Positions 5,520 to 25,552 of a stretch of DNA of 25,552 nt are shown here, in pieces. A program made the position numbers and the translations under genes. Location of the stretch: positions 1-25,552 of IMG/VR virus record IMGVR_UViG_3300014872_000008; one strand, written 5' to 3'. This stretch comes from a virus. Taxonomy: Duplodnaviria > Caudoviricetes. The notes under the pieces were generated by a model, which saw nothing but the letters and a program-made list of their open reading frames with translations, had not been told where the DNA came from and made no database searches. Position 1 is the stretch's first letter. Each line of letters starts with the position of its first letter.

Positions 5520-5824
5520 CACCCCCGGACGCCCGCGTGCCGTTGGGGGCGTTGATTGCGAGGCTGCGTGAGGTAGTACCAGACGCGGATGAGGAGTTCA
5601 ACGCTCAGTGCGCCGTGCGCGATGACGCGGCGGATCGGCTGGCGGCCCTGGAGGCGCTGCTTGAGCGTGCCACGGCAGTCTGGATTGATGACAGTTGGGA
5701 AAATGGCGATAAACAATGCGCCGTATGTCTCGAAGACAAGCCATCACACGCCCCGGACTGCTGGCTGCGCGACCTGCTCGCGCTGGCGGGATCTGATGCT
5801 AAAATAAGCGGAGCGTCCGAGTGA
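5516..5824 (+). CDS. Hypothetical Zn-binding protein, 3' end possibly replaced by the TnpB element
   Basis: ATGA overlap; CAVC...HAPDC motif. Confidence 0.65.
   Translation: MTPPDARVPLGALIARLREVVPDADEEFNAQCAVRDDAADRLAALEALLERATAVWIDDSWENGDKQCAVCLEDKPSHAPDCWLRDLLALAGSDAKISGASE
5797..5805 (+). promoter_or_regulatory. Extended -10 promoter (TGcTAAAAT) upstream of tnpB
   Basis: TGnTAAAAT in an otherwise GC-rich context, followed by a hairpin leader. Confidence 0.45.
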
Positions 5825-6989
5825 TGGTGTCACTCGAAACGCCCCTCACCACTCGGACCGTTGAAGGCGGCCACGACATGGCTAGAACAAAGCCTACCAA
5901 ATCGATCATTCAGTGCCAGTTAAAGTTGAAGCTCCGGCCGGCTCAGGAGCGGATGCTGAACCGCTGGCTCTGGCACCTCACGGCCGTGTTCAATTGGGCG
6001 TACAAGACCGTTGAGCATAACGCCAACCAAGGGATCTATCTATCTCGTTACGATTTAGAGTCGCGTCTTGCTTTCCACTCAGGACGCATGGGTATTCCAG
6101 CCAGGGTGTTGGATGGTGCAGCTCGAACCGCGCACGATGCGTGGCAGCGGTGCTTTCAGCGCCTGGCTCGACGGCCGCGCATGAAAGGTCGTAGAAATCG
6201 CCTGAACAGCATCCTGTTTCGACAGGTGATTAATCGCGTGGAATGCGACCGGATCTTCGTGTCCGGGTTTGGCATGGTGCGATTTCATCGGCAAGAGATT
6301 CCGGCTGGACGGATCACAGGCGCGCGACTGATACGTCGCTCGTCTGGCTGGTATTTCAGTCTATTCGTTGAGGCCAGTCCTCGTTCCATTCCCGTCCTGT
6401 CGAGCGGAGAGATAGGCATCGATCCTGGTTTTGTGTCGCTGATCTCTCTGTCCACCGGAGAGAAAGTCGAACAGGCTCTCGAACTGAAACAAACCGCGAT
6501 GCGGTTGGCGCAGTCTCAGCGAGGCAGCGACAGGCGGCTCACGGCCAGACTCAAAGAGCGTGAAGCGAATCAGAGGAAAGACCGCAATCATAAACTCTCG
6601 CGCCGGCTTCTATCTGAGAATGCGTTGATCTGTTGGTCGAAGGATTCTCATCGAGCCATCGCGCGCACGTTCGGTAAAAGCGTGGCTAGCGCCGCGCATG
6701 GGCAGCTTCGGCAAATGCTCGCGTACAAATGCCGTGCAGGCGGTCGCGAGTTCATCGAAGTGCCCAACCGGTATTCCACTATGACCTGTTCAGCATGTGG
6801 GGCGAGAAGTGGCCCGACTGGCTACGCAGGCTTGTCAGTAAGGCAATGGACGTGTGGCTGTGGAGCCAGTTGGGACCGCGACGTCAACGCCGCGCTCAAC
6901 ACACTGATTGCCGGGCGCGGACTGCGCCTCGAACGAGTCGGCGACGGCTCATCAGGAATCGTCACGTGATGCAATACGACGATAGTCAC
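5798..6989 (+). mobile_element. Non-autonomous IS200/IS605-type (tnpB-only) element; boundaries inferred
   Basis: tnpB ORF, left hairpin 5818-5836 and right-end-like GGAATC-hairpin-GTCAC at 6955-6989; no tnpA in the window. Confidence 0.55.
5878..6969 (+). CDS. tnpB: TnpB RNA-guided nuclease family protein
   Basis: N-terminal LKLRP..Q HTH, RuvC-I GIDPG, RKDRNHKLSRRL, LRQMLAYK, Zn ribbon CSACG..WTCGCG, RuvC-III DRDVNAALN. GTG 5821 is an alternative start. Confidence 0.92.
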   Translation: MARTKPTKSIIQCQLKLKLRPAQERMLNRWLWHLTAVFNWAYKTVEHNANQGIYLSRYDLESRLAFHSGRMGIPARVLDGAARTAHDAWQRCFQRLARRPRMKGRRNRLNSILFRQVINRVECDRIFVSGFGMVRFHRQEIPAGRITGARLIRRSSGWYFSLFVEASPRSIPVLSSGEIGIDPGFVSLISLSTGEKVEQALELKQTAMRLAQSQRGSDRRLTARLKEREANQRKDRNHKLSRRLLSENALICWSKDSHRAIARTFGKSVASAAHGQLRQMLAYKCRAGGREFIEVPNRYSTMTCSACGARSGPTGYAGLSVRQWTCGCGASWDRDVNAALNTLIAGRGLRLERVGDGSSGIVT

Positions 6990-8250: not shown

Positions 8251-8468
8251 CGCTGACCCGCCTGAACCGCTTCTACTCACTCTACCTCTGGCGCACCCAC
8301 TACGTCTGCCGGTGCGGGGCGTTCCTGCCGAAGGATGGGCGCGAACTGCACGAGCAGTTCCACGCCGCGGCCAGAGAGTTCTTCCAACCACCGACTGGCA
8401 ACGACCTGGCGTGGATACGGCAGGCGCTTGAGGCTCAGCCCACGCCAAAAACGGAGACACCGCGATGA
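8247..8468 (+). CDS. Hypothetical protein (C2H2-like CRCG...HEQFH)
   Basis: ATGA overlaps at both ends. Confidence 0.65.
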   Translation: MTLTRLNRFYSLYLWRTHYVCRCGAFLPKDGRELHEQFHAAAREFFQPPTGNDLAWIRQALEAQPTPKTETPR

Positions 8469-8905
8469 TCCAGCCCATTTCACGACGCGGCTTTCTCTCA
8501 GCTCTGATGGCCGCGACGGCGTCAGCCTCCGTGCTGGCGATTGAGGACCCTGAGCGGTTGCTCTGGGAGCCCGGGAAGAAGACCATCATCGATCTCGGCG
8601 CCCAGATCGCGCCAGCGACGCTCCAAGAAACCACGCAGATCACGTCTGGCTTCCAGGCGATGCTGTTACAGGAGCTAGCGCAGGGGCGAGCACCGTTGCC
8701 AGTTCGGCCGCTGTATATGCCGGACCGCTACCGGATGACGCTAGGCAATGGGACCGAAATGAACTTCGATTCGGACTGGAAGCTACAGCGCGGCGCCGTG
8801 GGCGGACGGCCCATGAATGATCGCGAGAAGGCGAAGATGGCGGCCGAGTTCGATCACGCTCGACGCCAGAAGATCAACCTGCGCACCTTTCGACTGGAGG
8901 ATTGA
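8465..8905 (+). CDS. Twin-arginine signal peptide protein
   Basis: N-terminus MIQPISRRGFLSALMAATASASVLA fits S-R-R-x-F-L plus an Ala-rich h-region; followed by DPERLLWEPGKKT. Confidence 0.75.
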   Translation: MIQPISRRGFLSALMAATASASVLAIEDPERLLWEPGKKTIIDLGAQIAPATLQETTQITSGFQAMLLQELAQGRAPLPVRPLYMPDRYRMTLGNGTEMNFDSDWKLQRGAVGGRPMNDREKAKMAAEFDHARRQKINLRTFRLED

Positions 8906-8907
8906 GA

Positions 8908-9066
8908 ATGCCGAATCTAGGAATGACGGAGATGTTGATCATTGGCGGGATTGCGCTGCTCATCTTTGGGCCGAGTCAACTCCCGAAACTGGGTCGTTCG
9001 TTGGGGGCGACGATCCGAGAGTTCCGTGGCGTCGCCAAGGAGCTGCACGGCAAGGACGAGGAGTAG
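8908..9066 (+). CDS. tatA: TatA/E family twin-arginine translocase subunit (52 aa)
   Basis: Translated by hand: MPNLGMTEMLIIGGIALLIFGPSQLPKLGRSLGATIREFRGVAKELHGKDEE. It shows GxxE, a TM helix, the FG hinge and the LPxLGRSLG..IREFR amphipathic helix; GGAGG SD at 8896-8900. Confidence 0.93.
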   Translation: MPNLGMTEMLIIGGIALLIFGPSQLPKLGRSLGATIREFRGVAKELHGKDEE

Positions 9067-14500: not shown

Positions 14501-14832
14501 AGGGCTGGATCGCCGTCGATCTCGACGGCACACTCGCGCACGAGGACGGCTGGAAGGGCGAGGACCACATCGGCGCGCCAATCCCGGCGATGGTCGCATT
14601 CGTCAAGGCCCTGATCTCGGCCGGCGAGGACGTGCGGATCTTCACGGCGCGGGTCGGGATGTGGCCCGAAGGTAGTGACGATCACGAGCGCAACCGGCGC
14701 ATCGTGCAGGCGTGGTGCCTCGAGCATCTCGGGCAAGCGTTGGAGGTCACGGCCATCAAGGACATGGGGATGCACGCGCTCTACGACGATCGCGCCATCC
14801 AGGTCGAGACGAACACCGGACGGATCCTATGA
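14497..14832 (+). CDS. HAD-superfamily phosphatase-like protein
   Basis: IAVDLDGTL, IFTAR, K..LYDDRA motifs; GTGA overlap. Confidence 0.85.
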   Translation: MKGWIAVDLDGTLAHEDGWKGEDHIGAPIPAMVAFVKALISAGEDVRIFTARVGMWPEGSDDHERNRRIVQAWCLEHLGQALEVTAIKDMGMHALYDDRAIQVETNTGRIL

Positions 14833-15266
14833 CCCTTCACGCCTTGCTCGTCATCCTCTGGCTGCTGGCCCTGCACTTTCTGGCCGACTTCGTCCTGCAG
14901 AGCGATCGGGTCGCCCAGGCGAAGTCCAAGGACTGGGGGATGCTTGGGATGCACGCCTCGTTCTACGCCGGCATCGTTGGGGTTGGGCTGTTCTTGGCCG
15001 TTGGCGTCGGCGCCGCGCTCTTGACGTTCTATCTCATCACGCTCGCCGCCCACTTCCTGACGGACGCGGTCACGAGCCGGGTCAACGCGAAGCTCTGGCC
15101 GCTGACACCTCTGAGCCATATCCATCAGCAAGACGCCTTCGAGCCTGTGTTCGCGCTGCGCTACGGTAAGGGGTTTCACAACTTCTTCGTCGGCGTCGGC
15201 TTCGACCAACTGCTGCACCAGGCGCAGCTCATCCTCACGGCCTACGGGCTGGGGCTGCTCAGATGA
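14829..15266 (+). CDS. DUF3307-like membrane protein
   Basis: HFLADFVLQ, H..Y, HFLTD and GFDQLLH motifs within TM helices. Confidence 0.75.
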   Translation: MTLHALLVILWLLALHFLADFVLQSDRVAQAKSKDWGMLGMHASFYAGIVGVGLFLAVGVGAALLTFYLITLAAHFLTDAVTSRVNAKLWPLTPLSHIHQQDAFEPVFALRYGKGFHNFFVGVGFDQLLHQAQLILTAYGLGLLR

Positions 15267-15971: not shown

Positions 15972-16235
15972 ATGCGCGCATCCTTCTCGATCGATAGCCT
16001 CCACGAACTTGAGATCACCGGTGACGTGCCACGGCACGAGCACGACCCGGCGAGCGTGTGTCTCAACGTCCTCCGCACGCCGCTCCCGGTGAAGAACGTC
16101 TATGGGCCGAAGGAGGCCGGACCGGAATACACCCAGGGACCGACCGAGACGATCATCTCGGTGAGCCTGCGTCCGAGCCATGCTCGGGCCATCGCGAGCG
16201 CGATGCTCTCGGCGGCCACAGAGGCGCGCGGATGA
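15972..16235 (+). CDS. Hypothetical protein
   Basis: AGGAG SD upstream of ATG 15972. Confidence 0.7.
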   Translation: MRASFSIDSLHELEITGDVPRHEHDPASVCLNVLRTPLPVKNVYGPKEAGPEYTQGPTETIISVSLRPSHARAIASAMLSAATEARG

Positions 16236-16513
16236 TGCGTGCCGGGCCTGTTCCGACGGATCTCCTGGCGGCGTCAGCCCGGGCGACCAGGCTCGCGGAC
16301 GAGCTCCATCGGCACGCGGACTGGTTGCAATCGATCCATCGCTGGGACGACGCCAGGGCGATCCGTGGCGCCGCGAGAAGCGCGGCCCAGATCGCGTGGC
16401 TGGCATCCGGCCGCGGCCAGCGCCGGGCGAGGCGCGTCGTCCACCCAGCAGACACGCCGGCCACGCGCGGCCTGCGTGCGCCGTTCCGCCCGTGGTGGCG
16501 CTTCTGGTGGTGA
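16232..16513 (+). CDS. Hypothetical protein with C-terminal PWWRFWW
   Basis: ATGA and GTGA overlaps with both neighbours. Confidence 0.6.
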   Translation: MMRAGPVPTDLLAASARATRLADELHRHADWLQSIHRWDDARAIRGAARSAAQIAWLASGRGQRRARRVVHPADTPATRGLRAPFRPWWRFWW

Positions 16514-17298
16514 CGCGCCACGACGCCGTTCTCGTGGAACTGGCGACCCGAACGAACGTCAAGTTCAACCGCTACTTCCCGACCTGCACGCCCGCGTGTC
16601 ACCCGACGTCCCTACGGAAGGAGGATCACAGCGGCCTGTGCCGGGCGCTCTACGTGAAGCATGCGCAGTTCATGGCCGCCGGCGCCATCCATCGGGAGCG
16701 GCTGTTCATGGCGGCCAACCGGATCGGGAAGACGGAGACGGTCTCGTTCGAGGTCGCGGCGCACATGACGGGCCTGTACCCGACATGGTGGAGGGGACGC
16801 GAGTTCGACCGACCGGTGCGCGCCTGGGCCTCTGGCGACACGATGCTGACCACGCGCGACATCCTCCAGGTCGCGCTGCTCGGGCCGGTGGACTGCGTCG
16901 ATACCAGAGACTGGCGCGGCATGCTCCCCGTCCACTTGATCGTCGACACGACCCGAAAGAGCGGTGGGGTGTCGAAGTGCCTCGACCAGGTGTGGGTTAA
17001 GCACGTCAGCGGTGGGCGCTCGATCTTGGAGTTCAAGAGCCATGACCAGGGTCGGCGGGCCTTCCAGGGCACCGAACAGGACGTCATCGTGCTCGACGAG
17101 GAGCCGCCGGACGACGTCTACACGGAGTGCCTGCTACGCACGATGACGACCGATGGCCTGATCCTGTGTTCCATGACGCCGCTCCAAGGGCTGACGCCGT
17201 TCGTGCAGCAATACCTCGAGACAGCCACGATGATTGATAGCGATGGCCTCGCCCAGAAGGCGAGCGAAGCGGTGTGGCCGAGTGGGAGTGCGGCATGA
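16510..17298 (+). CDS. terL: Terminase large subunit, N-terminal ATPase part
   Basis: Walker A AANRIGKT, TGLYPTWW.G, Walker B VIVLDEE, coupling motif MTPLQG; P22 gp2-like. Confidence 0.9.
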   Translation: MTRHDAVLVELATRTNVKFNRYFPTCTPACHPTSLRKEDHSGLCRALYVKHAQFMAAGAIHRERLFMAANRIGKTETVSFEVAAHMTGLYPTWWRGREFDRPVRAWASGDTMLTTRDILQVALLGPVDCVDTRDWRGMLPVHLIVDTTRKSGGVSKCLDQVWVKHVSGGRSILEFKSHDQGRRAFQGTEQDVIVLDEEPPDDVYTECLLRTMTTDGLILCSMTPLQGLTPFVQQYLETATMIDSDGLAQKASEAVWPSGSAA

Positions 17299-17486
17299 GC
17301 CGCTGTCCCATTTGCGACGGGGAGGGTTGTATTACTCCACATGAAGACGAGATCCCGTGGGGACTCGGACCCGCGCTGAGACCGGCGACAGTCAGGCGAC
17401 CACCGGTGCAAGTCGCTGATCCTCGCGTCCCAAGCGGCATACCGGCACCTGATGACGACGACCTCGACGGGGCGAGGATCTATTGA
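17295..17486 (+). CDS. Small protein (CPICDGEG) between the two terL halves
   Basis: GGGAG SD; ATGA overlap with terL-N and TTGA overlap with terL-C. Confidence 0.6.
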   Translation: MSRCPICDGEGCITPHEDEIPWGLGPALRPATVRRPPVQVADPRVPSGIPAPDDDDLDGARIY

Positions 17487-18229
17487 GTCGATTGGTCGTG
17501 TCCGCCACGTGGGATGACGCCCCGCACCTCGATGAGGCGACCAAGGCGCAGCTCTGGAACTCCATCCCGGCGTATCAGCGTGACGCTCGGACAAAAGGGA
17601 TCCCCCAACTGGGGTCCGGCGCGATCTACCCGTTTCCGGAAAGCCAGTTCAAGGTCGCGATCGCCGACGAGTTCGAACCGCCGAAGCACTGGCCGAGGGC
17701 GTTCGGCGGAGACTGTGCCCTCTCGGGCGTCACGGCGGCTGCGTGGGGGGCTCTCGATCGCGACAGCGACACGCTCTACGTCTACTCGGTCTACCGGCGA
17801 TCCCAGGCCGAGACGGCCGTCCATGCGGACGCCATCAAGGCGCGCGGGGTCTGGATCCCAGGCGTCATGGACGCCGCCGACGTGCTCGACCATGACCGGA
17901 CGCAGTTCATCACCCTCTACAAACGCCACGGGCTGGACGTCATGTTGCCGGACAAGGCGGTCGAGGCTGGCATCCAGGACGTCTACGACCGGATCAGCGC
18001 CGGGCGTCTGAAGGTGTTCGCGTCCTGCGTAGCGTTCTGGGACGAGTTCAGGCTCTACCAGCGCGACGAGCGCGGGCGCGTGGTGAAGAAGAACGATCAC
18101 GTCCTCGACGCGGTCCGTTACCTCGTGCGCACGGGCCTACGGCACGCGAAGGTGAAGCCCGAGCCGAAGGAGGAGGTCACGCATCTTGAGTATGAGCAGG
18201 GGCGCGCCAACCTCACGTGGATGCAGTAG
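17483..18229 (+). CDS. terL: Terminase large subunit, C-terminal (nuclease) part
   Basis: TWDDAPHL, RDARTKGIPQLGSGAIYP, GGDC, EFRLYQRD..VKKNDHVLDAVRY; TTG start. Confidence 0.9.
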   Translation: MSRLVVSATWDDAPHLDEATKAQLWNSIPAYQRDARTKGIPQLGSGAIYPFPESQFKVAIADEFEPPKHWPRAFGGDCALSGVTAAAWGALDRDSDTLYVYSVYRRSQAETAVHADAIKARGVWIPGVMDAADVLDHDRTQFITLYKRHGLDVMLPDKAVEAGIQDVYDRISAGRLKVFASCVAFWDEFRLYQRDERGRVVKKNDHVLDAVRYLVRTGLRHAKVKPEPKEEVTHLEYEQGRANLTWMQ

Positions 18230-20174: not shown

Positions 20175-20447
20175 ATGCTCGAGCAGCTTCCCAAGCACCT
20201 GTCCCGCCAGGACGCAGACTCGCGCGAGCGATGGTCGATCGCTGCGTACAAGGTCCTCTCGGACCAACTGAGTGACGACGGGCTGTTACTCCTGATCGCG
20301 GCCGGCCGTCAGAAGTTCCTGAAAGACTCCCGGCTGGCGTTCCGTGGTCAGGACTTCCGCGAGGATGACCACGAGCGGATCTGGCAGCTCCTCATGAGAC
20401 GGGCCAGAAAGTTAGCGTCGAACGGTCCGGTTACGATCTATGGCTGA
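20175..20447 (+). CDS. Hypothetical protein
   Basis: Helical ORF overlapping the portal start; start uncertain. Confidence 0.55.
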   Translation: MLEQLPKHLSRQDADSRERWSIAAYKVLSDQLSDDGLLLLIAAGRQKFLKDSRLAFRGQDFREDDHERIWQLLMRRARKLASNGPVTIYG

Positions 20448-22824
20448 CCCACGCACGGTCCGCCTGACCGAGCCGGCGCTGCAGCTCGGCGCGCAGGTGC
20501 CCGATGGCCAAGTCAGCCTGACGCTATCCGACACGGACGTCTCGCCCGCGCAGGCCAAACGGGAGAAGATCGCCGCGTTCCTGGCGCTCGCCAAGACACG
20601 CTTCAAGCTCGTCTCCTCGACCGAGTCTCAGCTACGCCAGGACATGCTCGACGACCTAAAGTTCCGGGCGTCCGAGCAGTGGGACGCGACGGCGATTGCC
20701 GATCGGCAGGCGGACGGACGGCCGTGCCTGACGATCAACCGGCTCGCGCAGTTCGTGCGGCAGGTCACCAACGCCCAGCGGGCGGCCAACTTGGCCGTGA
20801 AGGTCACGCCGGTGGATGACGGGGCCGACGTCAAGACGGCCGAGACGATGCAGGGCTTGGTGCGGCACATCGAGCAGCAGAGCGACGCGCAGGTGGCCTA
20901 CGCGACCGCCAGCGACCATCAGACCACGATGGGTCGTGGCTACTGGATCGTCGATACCGAGTACGAACACGAGAAGAGCTTCGTCCAGGGCATCAGGATC
21001 AAGCGCATTCGTAACCCGTTCACGGTGTTCATGGACCCAACGGCGCAGGAAGCGGACGGGTCAGACGCCCGGTTCGGGTTCATCGTCGAGGATGTCCCGA
21101 AGGACGAGTACAAGGTCCGCTTTGGCGACGCCGCCATGGCGAGTCTTGAGGAGTTCATGGGCGCCGGCAGCCGCGAGCCAGACTGGCTGCCCGAGGGGAA
21201 GGTCAAGATCGCGCTGTACTGGTATGTCGCGCAGGAGACCACGACCCTCTACCTGGTCGAGTACAAGAACGGGCAGCAGGAAGCGCTGACGAAGGAAGAA
21301 CTGGAGCAGATCCCAGCACCATTGGCCGTCTACACGGTCGTCAATTCGCGGCCAGTGACACTCAAGCGCGTGAAACGCGCCTTGATCAACGCCGCCGAGA
21401 TCCTCGAGGGGAACAACGACCTGACAGAGGGCCGTGACTGGCCTGGCAAGTGGATCCCGATTGTGCCGGTGCTCGGCGACGAGCTGGACATCAATGGGCA
21501 AGTGGACTACCGCGGCATGATCCGCGATGCCAAGGACCCGCAGCGGCTCTACAACTTTCAGAACTCCGCCCTGGCCGAGACGTTGGCGCTCGTGCCGAAG
21601 GCGCCGTTCATCGGGGCTGAGGGGCAGTTTGAAGGGCACGAGGCGAAGTGGAAGTTGGCGAATCGTCGCGCCTTCCCCTACCTCGAATACAAGGTCAAAG
21701 ACATCAACGGGGTCGCTCTGCCGCCACCGCAGCGGAGTTCCGCCGGCGCCGACATCGGCGCGATCATGACGGCCATCCAACAGTCGGACCAGGACCTCAA
21801 GGCGACGATGGGGCTGTTCGAGCCATCGCTCGGCATCCGCGACAGTAACCAGCAGTCTGGCCGGGCCATCCAGGCGCTCCAGAAGCAGGGCGAGCAGGCC
21901 AACTCCAACTTCCTCGACAACCTGAGCCGGGCGATCCGGTTCACGGGCCGGATCATCGTCGACCTCGTGCCGCACATCTACGACGTGCCGCGGGTGTTGC
22001 GGATCATCGGCGACGACGAGACGGACCGGAAGGTCATGGTGATGTCGGGCCCGAACGCGCCGGCCAGCATGACGCCAGAGGCCATGGAAGAGCAGGAGAT
22101 CGACGGGATCTTCGACCTGTCCATTGGCCGCTACGACGTGATCTGCCAGGCCGGCCCATCGACCGCAACGAAGCGCGACCAGGCGCTCCAGGCGCTCACC
22201 GGGTTCGTGCAAGCCTACCCGGCGGCATTCCCACTGCTCGGGGACCTGCTCGTCGGCAGCTTGGACTGGCCAGGGGCCCAGGCGGCGGCCAAGCGTCTCA
22301 AGGCCGCCATCCCGCCAGAAGTGCGCGACCAGGACGGCGCCAGCGAGACCGACCCGCAGCAGCTCATGGCGCAGATACAGCAACTCATGCAGCAACTGGA
22401 GATGGCGAACGTCGCCCTGCAGGAGGCGCAGCAACTCGTCCAGGGCAAGCAATTGGAACTCCAGGCCCAAGAGCGGATGAAGCAGATGGAACTCGACTCG
22501 CGCGAGCGGATCGAGGGCATCAAGGCGGAGGTCTCCGCGCTGCAGGTGCTGACGAAGGTCAAGGCCGACGCCGCCATCGCGGACCGGAAGATCGGGGCCG
22601 AGATGCTCGAGCAACGGATCGACCACGCCCATGAGCGGGCGATGGCGGCGCAGGCCCGCGCCGACGACCGAGTCGAAGCCGAGGAGGGCCGAGAGGCGAA
22701 CCGGGAGGATGCGCAACGCACTCGGTTCGATGACCGGGTGGACGCGACCGTGAACCGGGTGCGCGACCGCACTGACGCGGACCGACAAGGCGAGCGAGAC
22801 CGCGCGAGCGGGCCGCCCGCATGA
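20440..22824 (+). CDS. Portal protein, P22-like
   Basis: DDLKF..EQW..R..DGRPCLTINRL, WIPIVPV.G, GMIRDAKDPQRLYN, SGRAI and a Q-rich C-terminal coiled coil; lies between terL and scaffold. Confidence 0.92.
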   Translation: MADPRTVRLTEPALQLGAQVPDGQVSLTLSDTDVSPAQAKREKIAAFLALAKTRFKLVSSTESQLRQDMLDDLKFRASEQWDATAIADRQADGRPCLTINRLAQFVRQVTNAQRAANLAVKVTPVDDGADVKTAETMQGLVRHIEQQSDAQVAYATASDHQTTMGRGYWIVDTEYEHEKSFVQGIRIKRIRNPFTVFMDPTAQEADGSDARFGFIVEDVPKDEYKVRFGDAAMASLEEFMGAGSREPDWLPEGKVKIALYWYVAQETTTLYLVEYKNGQQEALTKEELEQIPAPLAVYTVVNSRPVTLKRVKRALINAAEILEGNNDLTEGRDWPGKWIPIVPVLGDELDINGQVDYRGMIRDAKDPQRLYNFQNSALAETLALVPKAPFIGAEGQFEGHEAKWKLANRRAFPYLEYKVKDINGVALPPPQRSSAGADIGAIMTAIQQSDQDLKATMGLFEPSLGIRDSNQQSGRAIQALQKQGEQANSNFLDNLSRAIRFTGRIIVDLVPHIYDVPRVLRIIGDDETDRKVMVMSGPNAPASMTPEAMEEQEIDGIFDLSIGRYDVICQAGPSTATKRDQALQALTGFVQAYPAAFPLLGDLLVGSLDWPGAQAAAKRLKAAIPPEVRDQDGASETDPQQLMAQIQQLMQQLEMANVALQEAQQLVQGKQLELQAQERMKQMELDSRERIEGIKAEVSALQVLTKVKADAAIADRKIGAEMLEQRIDHAHERAMAAQARADDRVEAEEGREANREDAQRTRFDDRVDATVNRVRDRTDADRQGERDRASGPPA

Positions 22825-23125: not shown

Positions 23126-24244
23126 ATGCCTGACATTCGACTCGACTCGACGACGAACACACGTGAAGAGGTCGCGGCTGCGCTCGGCGTGACGCCCGTG
23201 ACGCCTGAGACCGTGCCCGTGGTCGCACCGGTGGCCGCGAGCGAGACCGTTGTCGCGCCAAAAGCCACGCCAGAGACGCCAGCGGTCGAGAAACCGGTGG
23301 CCGCAAGCGAGACCAAGCCAGCCGAGACGGACGACGACGACTCGGACGACGAACCCGATCCGCAGGACAGTTCCGAGGCTGGACGCGCCCTCTCGACGCG
23401 CCGCCGGAAGATGCAGCATCGCATCGACAAGCTGACCTTCGAGAAGCACACGAGCGTGGCCGAGCGCGACCGCGCGCTGGCGAAGGCCACTGAGCTGCAG
23501 GCCAAACTCGACGCCCTCACGAGCGGCAAGCCGGCCACCGATCCAGTTAGCGATCCGGTCAAGACGGCCGATCCGGTCAAGCCGGCGACGTTCGATACGC
23601 CGCGGCCAAAGCAGGGCGACTTCGACGACTACGAGAAGTACGAAGAGGCGCGCGACGCCTGGGTCGAAGCCAAGACGGCGTTCAACATGAACGCGGCGCT
23701 GGCCGAGCGCGACCGCAAGGCCGCCGAAGCCGTGCTCGCCGCAGAAGAAGTCCAGCGGCGAGCGACGCTCGCCCGCGAGATCGCGGACGAGGACGCCGCT
23801 TATCAGCGGCGCCTGGTCGCCGCGAAGGCGAAGCATCCGGACTTCCAGGACGTGTTCGAGCAGGCGAAGGACCTCGCGGTCAGCCGCCCGATGCTCGACC
23901 ACATGCGGTTCTCCGAGATGGGCGCCGAATTGACGTACTACTTCGCGACCCATCCGACCGAGGCCGAGCGCGTGGCGCAGATGGCACCGGCGCCGGCGAT
24001 TGCCGAGATGGGACGCCTGGAAGCGCGCATCGAGGCCGGGCTGATTGGTGGTGCCTCTGACGCGCCACCGACTGCCGGCATGGCCACCGTGTCAGCGCCG
24101 GCACGCGTGCCCGTCAGCAAGGCCCCGGCGCCGATGACGCGCCCGGGCGGTGGATCCACGACCTCGAGCAAGCCGCTCGACGAAGAGGACTACCAGACGT
24201 TCAAGCAGCGCCGACAGGCCGCCATCGCGGGCTCCCGTCGGTAA
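23126..24244 (+). CDS. Scaffolding protein
   Basis: Acidic/Pro-rich N-terminus, RIDKLT coiled coil, PKQGDFDDYEKYEEA, KHPDF..V, GAELTYYFATHP; between portal and coat. ATG 23126 preferred over 22976. Confidence 0.82.
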   Translation: MPDIRLDSTTNTREEVAAALGVTPVTPETVPVVAPVAASETVVAPKATPETPAVEKPVAASETKPAETDDDDSDDEPDPQDSSEAGRALSTRRRKMQHRIDKLTFEKHTSVAERDRALAKATELQAKLDALTSGKPATDPVSDPVKTADPVKPATFDTPRPKQGDFDDYEKYEEARDAWVEAKTAFNMNAALAERDRKAAEAVLAAEEVQRRATLAREIADEDAAYQRRLVAAKAKHPDFQDVFEQAKDLAVSRPMLDHMRFSEMGAELTYYFATHPTEAERVAQMAPAPAIAEMGRLEARIEAGLIGGASDAPPTAGMATVSAPARVPVSKAPAPMTRPGGGSTTSSKPLDEEDYQTFKQRRQAAIAGSRR

Positions 24245-24249
24245 CAGGT

Positions 24250-24323
24250 TCGCGAGCTTCGGCTCGTGTTGCTCGGTTCGACTCGTGTTCGTTGCGCATC
24301 ACTCGCGGGCTCCGGCCCGTGTT
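24250..24323 (+). promoter_or_regulatory. Duplicated UNCG-tetraloop hairpins in the scaffold-coat spacer
   Basis: CGCGAGC-TTCG-GCTCGTG (24251-68) and CGCGGGC-TCCG-GCCCGTG (24304-21). Confidence 0.65.
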
Positions 24324-24442
24324 CGTGGCTTCGATGGCCCACCGCGCACCCGCCATCGTCTTTGCCGTTCTTGCCCGTCGCGTCGGCTGCGACCCCGTTG
24401 CATTTTTCCAGGGGCGCGGTGCGTCCCGCAAAGGCTCGAACG

Positions 24443-25552
24443 ATGACTCCTACCTCGCTCTCCAAGTTCTGGGTGCATGACTCGCTGTTCGTGCGCCTCG
24501 GCACACTGCTCGTCGTGGCCCTTATGGTGGCCCTGTCGTGGGCGACCCCGGCCAGCACGATCAGTTTGGCCGACAACGTCCTGCTCACGATTGCGATGAT
24601 CACGCGCGAGGCATTGCGCGTGCTCGAGAACAACCTCACCTTCACGAAAAAGGTGAACCGGCAGTTCGATGACAAGTTCGGGGTCGAAGGCGCTAAGATC
24701 GGCACCGTCGTGAACGTGCGGAAGCCACCCCGCTACGTCACGCGCACCGGCCAGGCCCTGCAGGTCCAGGACGCGGTCGAAACGCAGGTACCGGTCACGC
24801 TCAATCAGCAGATTGGCGTGGACCTGTCGTTCTCATCGGCTGACCTCGCGCTGTCGATCGATGACTTCTCGCAGCGGTTCATCTCCCCAGCGATTGCCGC
24901 CGTGGCGAACCGGATCGACCAGCTCGGGCTGCAGCAGTACATCAACCTGAACCAGATCGTGGGCACGCCCGGCACGGTGCCGAACGCGCTCCTGACGTAT
25001 CTGCTCGCTGGCGTGGCGCTCGACAATAGCGCGGCGCCCATGGACGGCCAGCGGTCGATCACGATCAATCCGCTCATGCAGGCGACGATCGTCGACGCCC
25101 TGAAGGGACTCTTTCAGCAGGCGACGGCCATCGCGAGCCAGTACGAGAAGGGCGTGATGGGCACGGCGGCCGGCTTCGACTGGCAGATGGACCAGAACAT
25201 CGCCACGAACACGATCGGCCCGCTCGGCGGGACCCCGCTCGTGGCTGGCGCTGGCCAAACGGGCGCGACCCTGGCCACCGACGGCTGGACCGCCGCGGCA
25301 GCGAATCGACTCCTGCGTGGCAACACGTTCACGATCGCTGGGGTCTACCAGGTGAACCCGCAGAGCCGCGAGTCCACCGGCGTGCTCCAGTCGTTCCTCG
25401 TGACGGCGGACACAGCCAGCGACGGCGCGGGACTGGCCTCCATCCCGATCTTCCCGTCGATCATCACGTCCGGTCAGTTCCAGACGGTGACTGGATCCCC
25501 GGCCGACAATGCGGTGATCACGGTCCTCGGCGCGGCCAACACGGTCTCGCCG
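24443..25552 (+). CDS. Major capsid protein, P22 coat-like (3' truncated)
   Basis: Translated by hand: ...ADNVLLTIAMITREALRVLENNLTF...KIGTVVNVRKPPRY...FSSADLALSIDDFSQRFI.PA...GFDWQMDQN; runs off the window. Start is ATG 24443 or TTG 24566. Confidence 0.9.
   Translation, partial: MTPTSLSKFWVHDSLFVRLGTLLVVALMVALSWATPASTISLADNVLLTIAMITREALRVLENNLTFTKKVNRQFDDKFGVEGAKIGTVVNVRKPPRYVTRTGQALQVQDAVETQVPVTLNQQIGVDLSFSSADLALSIDDFSQRFISPAIAAVANRIDQLGLQQYINLNQIVGTPGTVPNALLTYLLAGVALDNSAAPMDGQRSITINPLMQATIVDALKGLFQQATAIASQYEKGVMGTAAGFDWQMDQNIATNTIGPLGGTPLVAGAGQTGATLATDGWTAAAANRLLRGNTFTIAGVYQVNPQSRESTGVLQSFLVTADTASDGAGLASIPIFPSIITSGQFQTVTGSPADNAVITVLGAANTVSP

Follow-up and report, generated by a model that had tools for sequence, protein, structure and literature searches.

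Tailed-phage coats are regarded as soluble cytoplasmic proteins, and a membrane leader on a shell that is built in the cell would be unexpected. The DNA studied here (the window, the whole 25.6-kb stretch of a virus record with a GC content of 65% and an estimated completeness of 67%) contains at its right end genes for a P22-like portal, a scaffold and then a coat running off the edge, and the coat frame opens with a hydrophobic extension (Table 1). The question is whether this extension is a real part of the protein and, if so, what it may do to a coat of this type.

Table 1. Coordinates of the features discussed, numbered from the first letter of the window
Feature	Coordinates	Strand	Basis or remark
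Tat-signal-like DPERLLWxPG gene	8465..8905	+	TIGR01409 15.9 bits (cut-off 16.7, just under); directly upstream of tatA
Phage TatA/E	8908..9066	+	PF02416 E 7.4e-18; TIGR01411 above cut-off
Fusion gene: Tat signal, DPExxLWxPG segment, copy of the N-terminal ~55 coat residues	19518..19832	+	TIGR01409 19.9 bits, cut-off 16.7
P22-like portal	20440..22824	+	PF16510 E 3.3e-167; no signal-like N-terminus (hydropathy screen, unflagged)
Head scaffolding protein	23126..24244	+	phrog_8865; no hydrophobic leader
Weak SD-like AAAGG	24430..24434	+	8 nt before leader ATG 24443
Coat leader M1-A43, 43 aa	24443..24571	+	In-frame ATG, homologue alignment, GC3
Predicted membrane helix, residues 15-33	24485..24541	+	AlphaFold helix; Kyte-Doolittle hydropathy
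Polar linker ending I-S-L-A	24542..24571	+	Predicted cut after A43; motif G-[VTLI]-x-x-A|[DAG]-N
P22/Sf6-type major coat body	24572..25552, off window edge	+	PF11651, phrog_283, Foldseek

The coat belongs to the P22 type by its sequence, by its HK97 fold and by the separate scaffold and P22-like portal encoded upstream. It matched PF11651 from residue 43 onwards (E 1.8e-20, 73.6 bits, Pfam cut-off 24), and its best Foldseek matches were the Sf6, CUS-3 and P22 coats (E 1.7e-24, TM ~0.65-0.70). The complete coat is found as a database protein (P0002) of 444 aa, whose model (pLDDT 73.8) consists of a separate helix at residues 15-33, a low-confidence linker at 36-43 and the HK97-fold body. The P22 coats (P22 gp5, Sf6, CUS-3) share the fold, PF11651 and the portal-scaffold-coat gene order with ours, and to our knowledge the P22 coat has no propeptide. 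Cultured relatives, namely Xanthomonas phage PBR31, Vibrio phage VvAW1 and Rhodoferax phage P26218, are 30-50% identical; the PBR31 coat, the one relative whose annotation was inspected, has its annotated start 6 nt before the match to residue 45 and thus no leader. The 40 phage matches listed begin at query residues 32-48. The large terminase subunit in the window is present as two ORFs, 16180-17298 (N-terminal ATPase) and 17483-18229 (RNaseH-like), with ~180 nt between them.

GC3 of the leader was 0.86 versus 0.89 for the coat body. The duplex scan gave SD energies of -3.2 kcal/mol for ATG 24443, -1.7 for TTG 24566 and -5.7 for GTG 24419, and the last of these, 8 codons upstream of the ATG, is a possible alternative start. 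The nearest homologue (P0003) starts at the Met equivalent to 24443. When 16 leader loci were compared by eye, a GAGG/GGAG-type SD preceded the leader start in 14, the exceptions being a locus at a contig edge (L184) and one whose chosen start is without SD (L008). At the position of TTG 24566, 34 of 56 leader coats have neither M nor V nor L and hence no codon that could serve as a start. Two loci (L178 and L192) encode identical leader proteins with pS of 0.19 and pN of 0.00. Each of the 15 leader pairs of >45% identity had a pN lower than its pS, with a ratio well under 1. Contigs of the probable source run span the leader with no differing letter, and an RNA-library assembly covers 24009-24511 without differences, although contigs cannot show transcription. 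The leader, with its ATG in frame with the P22-type coat, its conservation among homologues and a pair at zero pN, is a genuine coding part of the coat ORF, as the original prediction supposed, and it is conserved and under purifying selection. That prediction gave its length as 41 aa. Because leaderless coats have their initiator Met aligned to A43 and not to L42, the part that could be removed is 43 aa long.

To see how widely the leader occurs, we used the best 120 of 5535 protein matches, the window protein included. Sixty-six of these start with M-x-N, three with M-N and eight at an internal Met equivalent to M52, and 43 have extra residues. All but one of the 43 (the window protein among them) carry hydrophobic leaders of 37-54 aa; the exception, P0108, has a long extension that is not hydrophobic and was kept out of the leader counts. 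Conservation of the extension among the best-matching proteins thus holds for 42 of 120, or 41 of 119 when the window is excluded, and most of the remaining proteins begin with a Met of their own. The closest homologues retain the leader and do not begin at the equivalent of 24566 behind upstream stops or frameshifts. Among more distant anchorable representatives only 4 of 145 have such a leader, a metagenome scan with P0003 added one distant locus, and an ESM Atlas search with residues 1-60 gave no usable feature match. At the DNA level, leaderless coat genes begin with a start codon and an SD of their own, and in most of them stops lie just upstream. The eight proteins beginning at the M52 equivalent indicate that gene callers sometimes choose an internal Met. 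The scaffold-coat gap in the window (24245-24442) is 198 nt, that of L001 is 199 nt, and in most leaderless loci it is <45 nt.

On a 45-row tree, from which 'leaderless' database proteins lying inside leader clades without DNA support were excluded, the long leader requires at least 6 changes, 3 of them forced by well-supported branches. A single leader clade was not rejected by the AU test (p 0.13), and repeated origin of the leader is therefore not established. Losses are as likely as gains on this tree. One leaderless coat within a leader group (L195) was verified from DNA.

We then compared pooled leaders (n = 56: 42 from the best-120 list, 4 distant representatives and 10 loci, some of them near-copies). 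All follow one plan (56/56): the N-terminus is basic, the hydrophobic helix after it is long enough for a membrane, the linker is acidic and an Ala marks the boundary. The median length to the conserved Asn position was 44. The best 17-residue hydropathy was higher in the leader than in the coat body in every case; for the window the Kyte-Doolittle means are 2.49 and 1.42, respectively. The hydrophobic core had been put at ~14 aa: hydrophobic it is, and the model helix is longer, covering residues 15-33 with L19-W33 uncharged. Net charge was +2.4 on the n-side and -1.0 on the c-side, and the n-side was the more positive in all 56. The n-region of the window leader contains K8, D13 and R18 and has a net charge of 0 by the residue range used, and a value above 0 was obtained for 54 of the 56 leaders. 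Amphipathicity of the n-region was slightly higher than in shuffled sequences (moment 1.01 vs 0.89, 7 of 300 shuffles being as high), the window's own value being 0.61. Median identity of the window leader to the others was 25% compared with 70% for the coat body; as judged from these comparisons, what is conserved is hydropathy, length and flanking charge, not sequence. The coat bodies of leader and leaderless forms showed no separating adaptation in Cys count or early charge.

The boundary Ala is present in 56/56, located two residues before the conserved Asn position in 51 and directly before it in 5, whereas Ala at any of the 16 preceding positions occurs in at most 14. In all 56 it aligns with the initiator Met of leaderless coats. 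The usual pattern around it is G-V-x-x-A followed by D, A or G and then N, with Gly four residues before the Ala in 38/56 and Val three before in 29/56, and the residue immediately preceding the Ala is of 12 types. An SWA-type cleavage site had been predicted in the window. This did not hold, because a proximal small-x-A occurs in 27/56 leaders against a shuffle mean of 28.1, which is not above chance, and SWA was rejected as the conserved cut; the conserved site is ISLA|DN. Removal of the initiator Met is permitted when the second residue is A, P, S, T or G, and leaderless M-x-N coats have only these residues at that position (66/66 proteins, 84/84 loci), while in the leader forms Asp follows the boundary Ala in 19/56. 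A cut after the Ala and removal of the Met would yield the same mature N-terminus. Taken from these alignments, the leader is probably removed at Ala43.

Is the leader a signal peptide? A membrane-anchored precursor, the central claim of the original prediction, is plausible because the leader is conserved coding sequence with membrane-like hydropathy and an N-in charge asymmetry (56/56), the SWA site being the part of that claim that was lost, and the leader very probably inserts into the membrane. As a control for host signals we took 800 kb of an Acidobacteriota genome (G446; 550 ORFs), a choice to be read with the true host only hinted at. In it, a single N-terminal hydrophobic segment of non-lipoprotein type was present in 95 of the 550 ORFs, of which 47 also have an [AG]|Q site, some of them by chance since the background of this heuristic is 54 of 266 windows. 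Hydropathy was similar (median KD17 2.19 in leaders vs 2.06 in the control). The distance from the end of the uncharged run to the Ala was not: its median is 12 in leaders vs 4 in the control, the gap is at least 10 residues in 45/56 leaders vs 4/47 control signals, and D or E lies within the last 10 residues in 41/56 vs 5/47. P3 is S, L or M rather than A or V; it falls in the strict set A/V/S/T/G in 27/56 and is small or aliphatic, with L/I/C allowed, in 41/56. The n- and h-regions thus agree with a Sec/signal peptidase I substrate, and the short non-acidic c-region is missing. The window leader is nearer to a canonical signal than most, with a gap of 8 and an S-L-A that fits the -3/-1 rule. 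Judged by these features the leader is not quite a textbook Sec signal, because the Ala is ~12 residues past the helix and because portal and scaffold are without signal. Two other signal classes were tried and rejected: a Tat signal (RRx[FL][LI] in 0/56, any RR within the first 25 residues in 6/56, no NCBIfam match for P0002) and a lipoprotein signal (lipobox pattern anywhere in 4/56, Cys at the boundary in 0/56).

A more positive n-side corresponds to an N-in/C-out topology by the positive-inside rule, and the charge pattern therefore would place the Ala on the outer side of the membrane. DNA packaging needs cytoplasmic ATP and DNA. Because packaging takes place in the cytoplasm and neither portal nor scaffold carries a signal, the coat must end there too, and a sequence of insertion, cut and return of the N-arm would fit both an outer-side Ala and a cytoplasmic coat. 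We consequently favor, with a probability of about 0.4, N-in insertion followed by a signal-peptidase-type cut and aborted translocation, the coat body being cytoplasmic. The 43-residue leader would enter the inner membrane of the host, keep its N-terminus on the cytoplasmic side and be cut after Ala43 by a host enzyme of the signal-peptidase type; the coat body, never having left the cytoplasm or having returned to it, would assemble with portal and scaffold. Only a short exposed N-arm would have to return after the cut, as in hepatitis B precore p25/p22, where a capsid protein carries a signal and an abort of translocation after cleavage can leave a cytosolic product (PMC9973328). The likely purpose would be to collect coat that is not yet assembled and keep it at the membrane, or to control how fast it is released, and in this way to make heads nucleate at that site.

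In support of this reading, the leader plan is constant in 56/56 despite the median identity of 25%. That a host enzyme makes the cut is supported by Firmicutes loci from Selenomonas/Schwartzia MAGs (L079, L080, L085), in which this position of the P22-type coat is occupied by a Prp/L27-type leader that ends LQRF|A[DG]N and is of a kind known to be cut by the host, and by the failure to find a phage protease. No HK97/T4-type prohead protease was found beside the coat, scaffold and portal being directly upstream in the window. Pfam detected no maturation protease in 103 ORFs of G019, in two segments taken from the giant ORF of that record or in 78 ORFs from G005, G009 and G006, in scans that omitted ORFs <70 aa, low-GC3 frames, already identified ORFs and shadow frames over the giant ORF; the sole peptidase match in the scanned ORFs was an S74 tail-chaperone domain. 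G019 (94.5 kb, 93% complete) is the only leader-bearing record >90% complete, most of the protease-searched records being fragments, and a phage protease of another family is a possible alternative. Signal peptidase I paralogues gave 3 and 4 matches in the two Acidobacteriota MAGs tested. Acidobacteriota are weakly hinted at as host: an Acidobacteria MAG includes a 6.4-kb contig that bears one leader coat, the best tatA match among the sequences scanned is in a Vicinamibacterales MAG (58%, with Thermus close behind), and 5 of 401 Acidobacteriota genomes matched, only G001 closely. No second copy of the leader was found: the scaffold N-termini of 14 leader loci share no leader ahead of the STTD-type motif, and in the window, G005 and G019 a 13-row leader profile matched nothing but the coat. 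A host protein with a like leader was sought and rejected, the best non-coat match being an unconvincing secreted-looking protein of G001 (E 0.0097). Against the favored reading count the gap, the acidic linker and P3, which are unlike those of the control signals, and the lack of adaptation in the coat body; moreover, we found no bacterial precedent for aborted translocation of hundreds of coat copies.

The translocation problem is avoided if the coat is always cytoplasmic and the leader is a membrane tether lying in-plane, re-entrant or N-out, which another host protease cuts or which is left uncut until maturation. In one variant the releasing enzyme, intramembrane or cytoplasm-facing, reads G-V-x-x-A. 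The long acidic linker and the P4/P5 preference, which differ from host Sec signals, and the mild amphipathicity of the n-region would suit such a tether; on the other hand, the charge asymmetry favors N-in/C-out in 56/56, and the n-region of the window itself is only weakly amphipathic. Rhomboid motifs have a hydrophobic P4, a small P1 and a hydrophobic P2'. The leaders resemble this at P4 (V/L/I in 40/56) and at P1 (Ala in 56/56), but not at P2', where Asn is found in 49/56. Rhomboid matches numbered four in the Acidobacteria MAG G001, and no phage rhomboid was present in 39 virus records or in the 33 scanned ORFs of the window. We consider the tether somewhat unlikely.

Still less likely is a soluble assembly propeptide, of the type of the 80alpha capsid leader or a minimal delta domain, which a soluble protease cuts and whose helix has a chaperone, the scaffold or further leaders as its binding partner, without entering a membrane. 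Many relatives are leaderless, as this would allow, and Prp-type leaders occur at the same position in the same coat family. Prp cuts LQxF|A in both the capsid protein and the scaffold of 80alpha (PMC9405229, PMC5744158), and the 80alpha leader is removed by a soluble host enzyme with cleavage of the capsid protein being dispensable (PMC5744158). However, a binding helix should keep its sequence, and here identity is ~25% with only hydropathy, length and flanking charge kept; the residue before the Ala is variable, unlike the F|A of Prp sites, and the scaffold has no matching leader. The motif (D/N)LQ(F/L)F|A is absent from the 56 leaders, Phe precedes the Ala in 3/56, and no phage Prp was found in 40 virus records. 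In the same coat family, a further leader type is seen in L059:9333-10694 and L060:7250-8578 (Anaerolineae- and Burkholderiaceae-labelled MAGs), where it is 29 residues long and its last residues are GLVL[GA]N.

The window also encodes Tat functions, and a parallel between its Tat::coat fusion and the leader had been drawn. The fusion is present, and so is TatA. The fused fragment begins near the mature start and copies the N-arm, the first helix and the start of the next loop of the coat, and like fusions occur in L172 (1118-1399), P0273 and P0274. The leaders themselves lack RRx[FL][LI], and the association is loose: TatA, which besides the window is encoded in virus records G005 and G022, was found in 2/16 leader vs 1/24 leaderless records, and DPExLLWxPG Tat genes in 5/16 vs 1/24 (Fisher p 0.03), the model for the latter having been built from five of the six positive records and the records as a whole being non-independent and in many cases short. 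From these counts the link between leader and Tat appears loose, and a shared host lineage explains it as well as a shared function. The Tat::coat fusions in the window and three other sequences, the TatA of the window, the signal-like topology of the leader and the Sec-signal-like ORFs among the head genes of G005 would all be compatible with true export, with the coat partly or wholly periplasmic and acting as a decoy or exclusion factor or joining particles at lysis. This is improbable, since an internal start from which a cytoplasmic pool could be made is not conserved, neither portal nor scaffold bears a signal while packaging requires cytoplasmic ATP and DNA, and the leader forms have no extra cysteines.

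An annotation artefact, in which TTG 24566 or ATG 24596 is the true start and the absence of stops before it is fortuitous, would agree with the weak SD before 24443 and with the excess of leaderless forms (77 of the best 120 of 5535 matches), but it is highly improbable and both internal starts were rejected on conservation, start-codon and SD evidence, since frame, SD and leader plan are kept in dozens of homologues with pN/pS <1 in 15 pairs, the internal position has no conserved start codon, and a start at ATG 24596 would lose the invariant L48 and I50.

Among known systems, 80alpha is similar in having an N-terminal leader on an HK97-fold coat that is removed next to an Ala with no prohead protease in the phage. 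It differs in that its leader is 13-14 aa, soluble, has a fixed LQxF|A and is also on the scaffold, whereas our leader, of ~44 aa, contains a helix of membrane type, lacks LQxF and is not repeated on the scaffold. In Cp-1, a capsid extension of ~40 aa is cut by a phage cysteine protease. T4 head assembly is membrane-sited. The M13 procoat, like ours, is a major coat with a cleavable signal, the 23-aa signal of pVIII being cut by host leader peptidase (PMC10480500); M13 differs in being filamentous, with a mature coat that is a membrane protein and no preformed head, while our phage has a soluble coat of the HK97 fold and encodes portal, scaffold and terminase. The hepatitis B case differs in that it is eukaryotic and that precore is extra and dispensable beside a leaderless core; in our phage the leader form is apparently the only form. 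Empty capsids of jumbo phages assemble at the host cell membrane, and the passages on this assembly describe no membrane leader on the major capsid protein (PMC9365700), ours being a small podovirus-type phage. Searching outside subscription journals and supplements, we found no published signal-type or membrane leader on a tailed-phage capsid. Compared in this way, the leader appears to resemble host-processed capsid leaders.

Because the leader is of membrane type, conserved and under selection, and stops exactly where the mature coat begins, it suggests that heads mature by a route not described so far, via the host membrane protein machinery. In its broadest form the proposal would be that soil and sediment podoviruses build heads from a membrane-inserted procoat, with host secretion and a signal-peptidase-type enzyme maturing an HK97-fold capsid, and that phage-encoded TatA and coat fragments exported by Tat belong to one envelope-linked programme with it; this is conceivable but rather doubtful as a whole. 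The coat family is in effect a natural experiment, with no leader, a Prp-type, a short hydrophobic or a long membrane leader at one position, and the reason why phages add host-cut leaders to their coats becomes testable by heterologous expression.

Several other genes were observed in the window and in leader-bearing records. The window has an IS605-type TnpB/Cas12f-like gene at 5821-6969 (PF07282, PF01385) and, at ~14829-15266, a DUF3307 membrane protein with HxxxD motifs, of which a close homologue is absent from the leader loci compared. In virus record G005, four ORFs with Sec-signal-like N-termini (120-801 aa) are located in the terminase-portal interval (L222:10710-16062). In G019 (L220), one frame is open throughout a 20-kb stretch (>6,600 aa) and contains polyvalent-protein domains, namely LPD14, a helicase, PBECR5 and ART-PolyVal.
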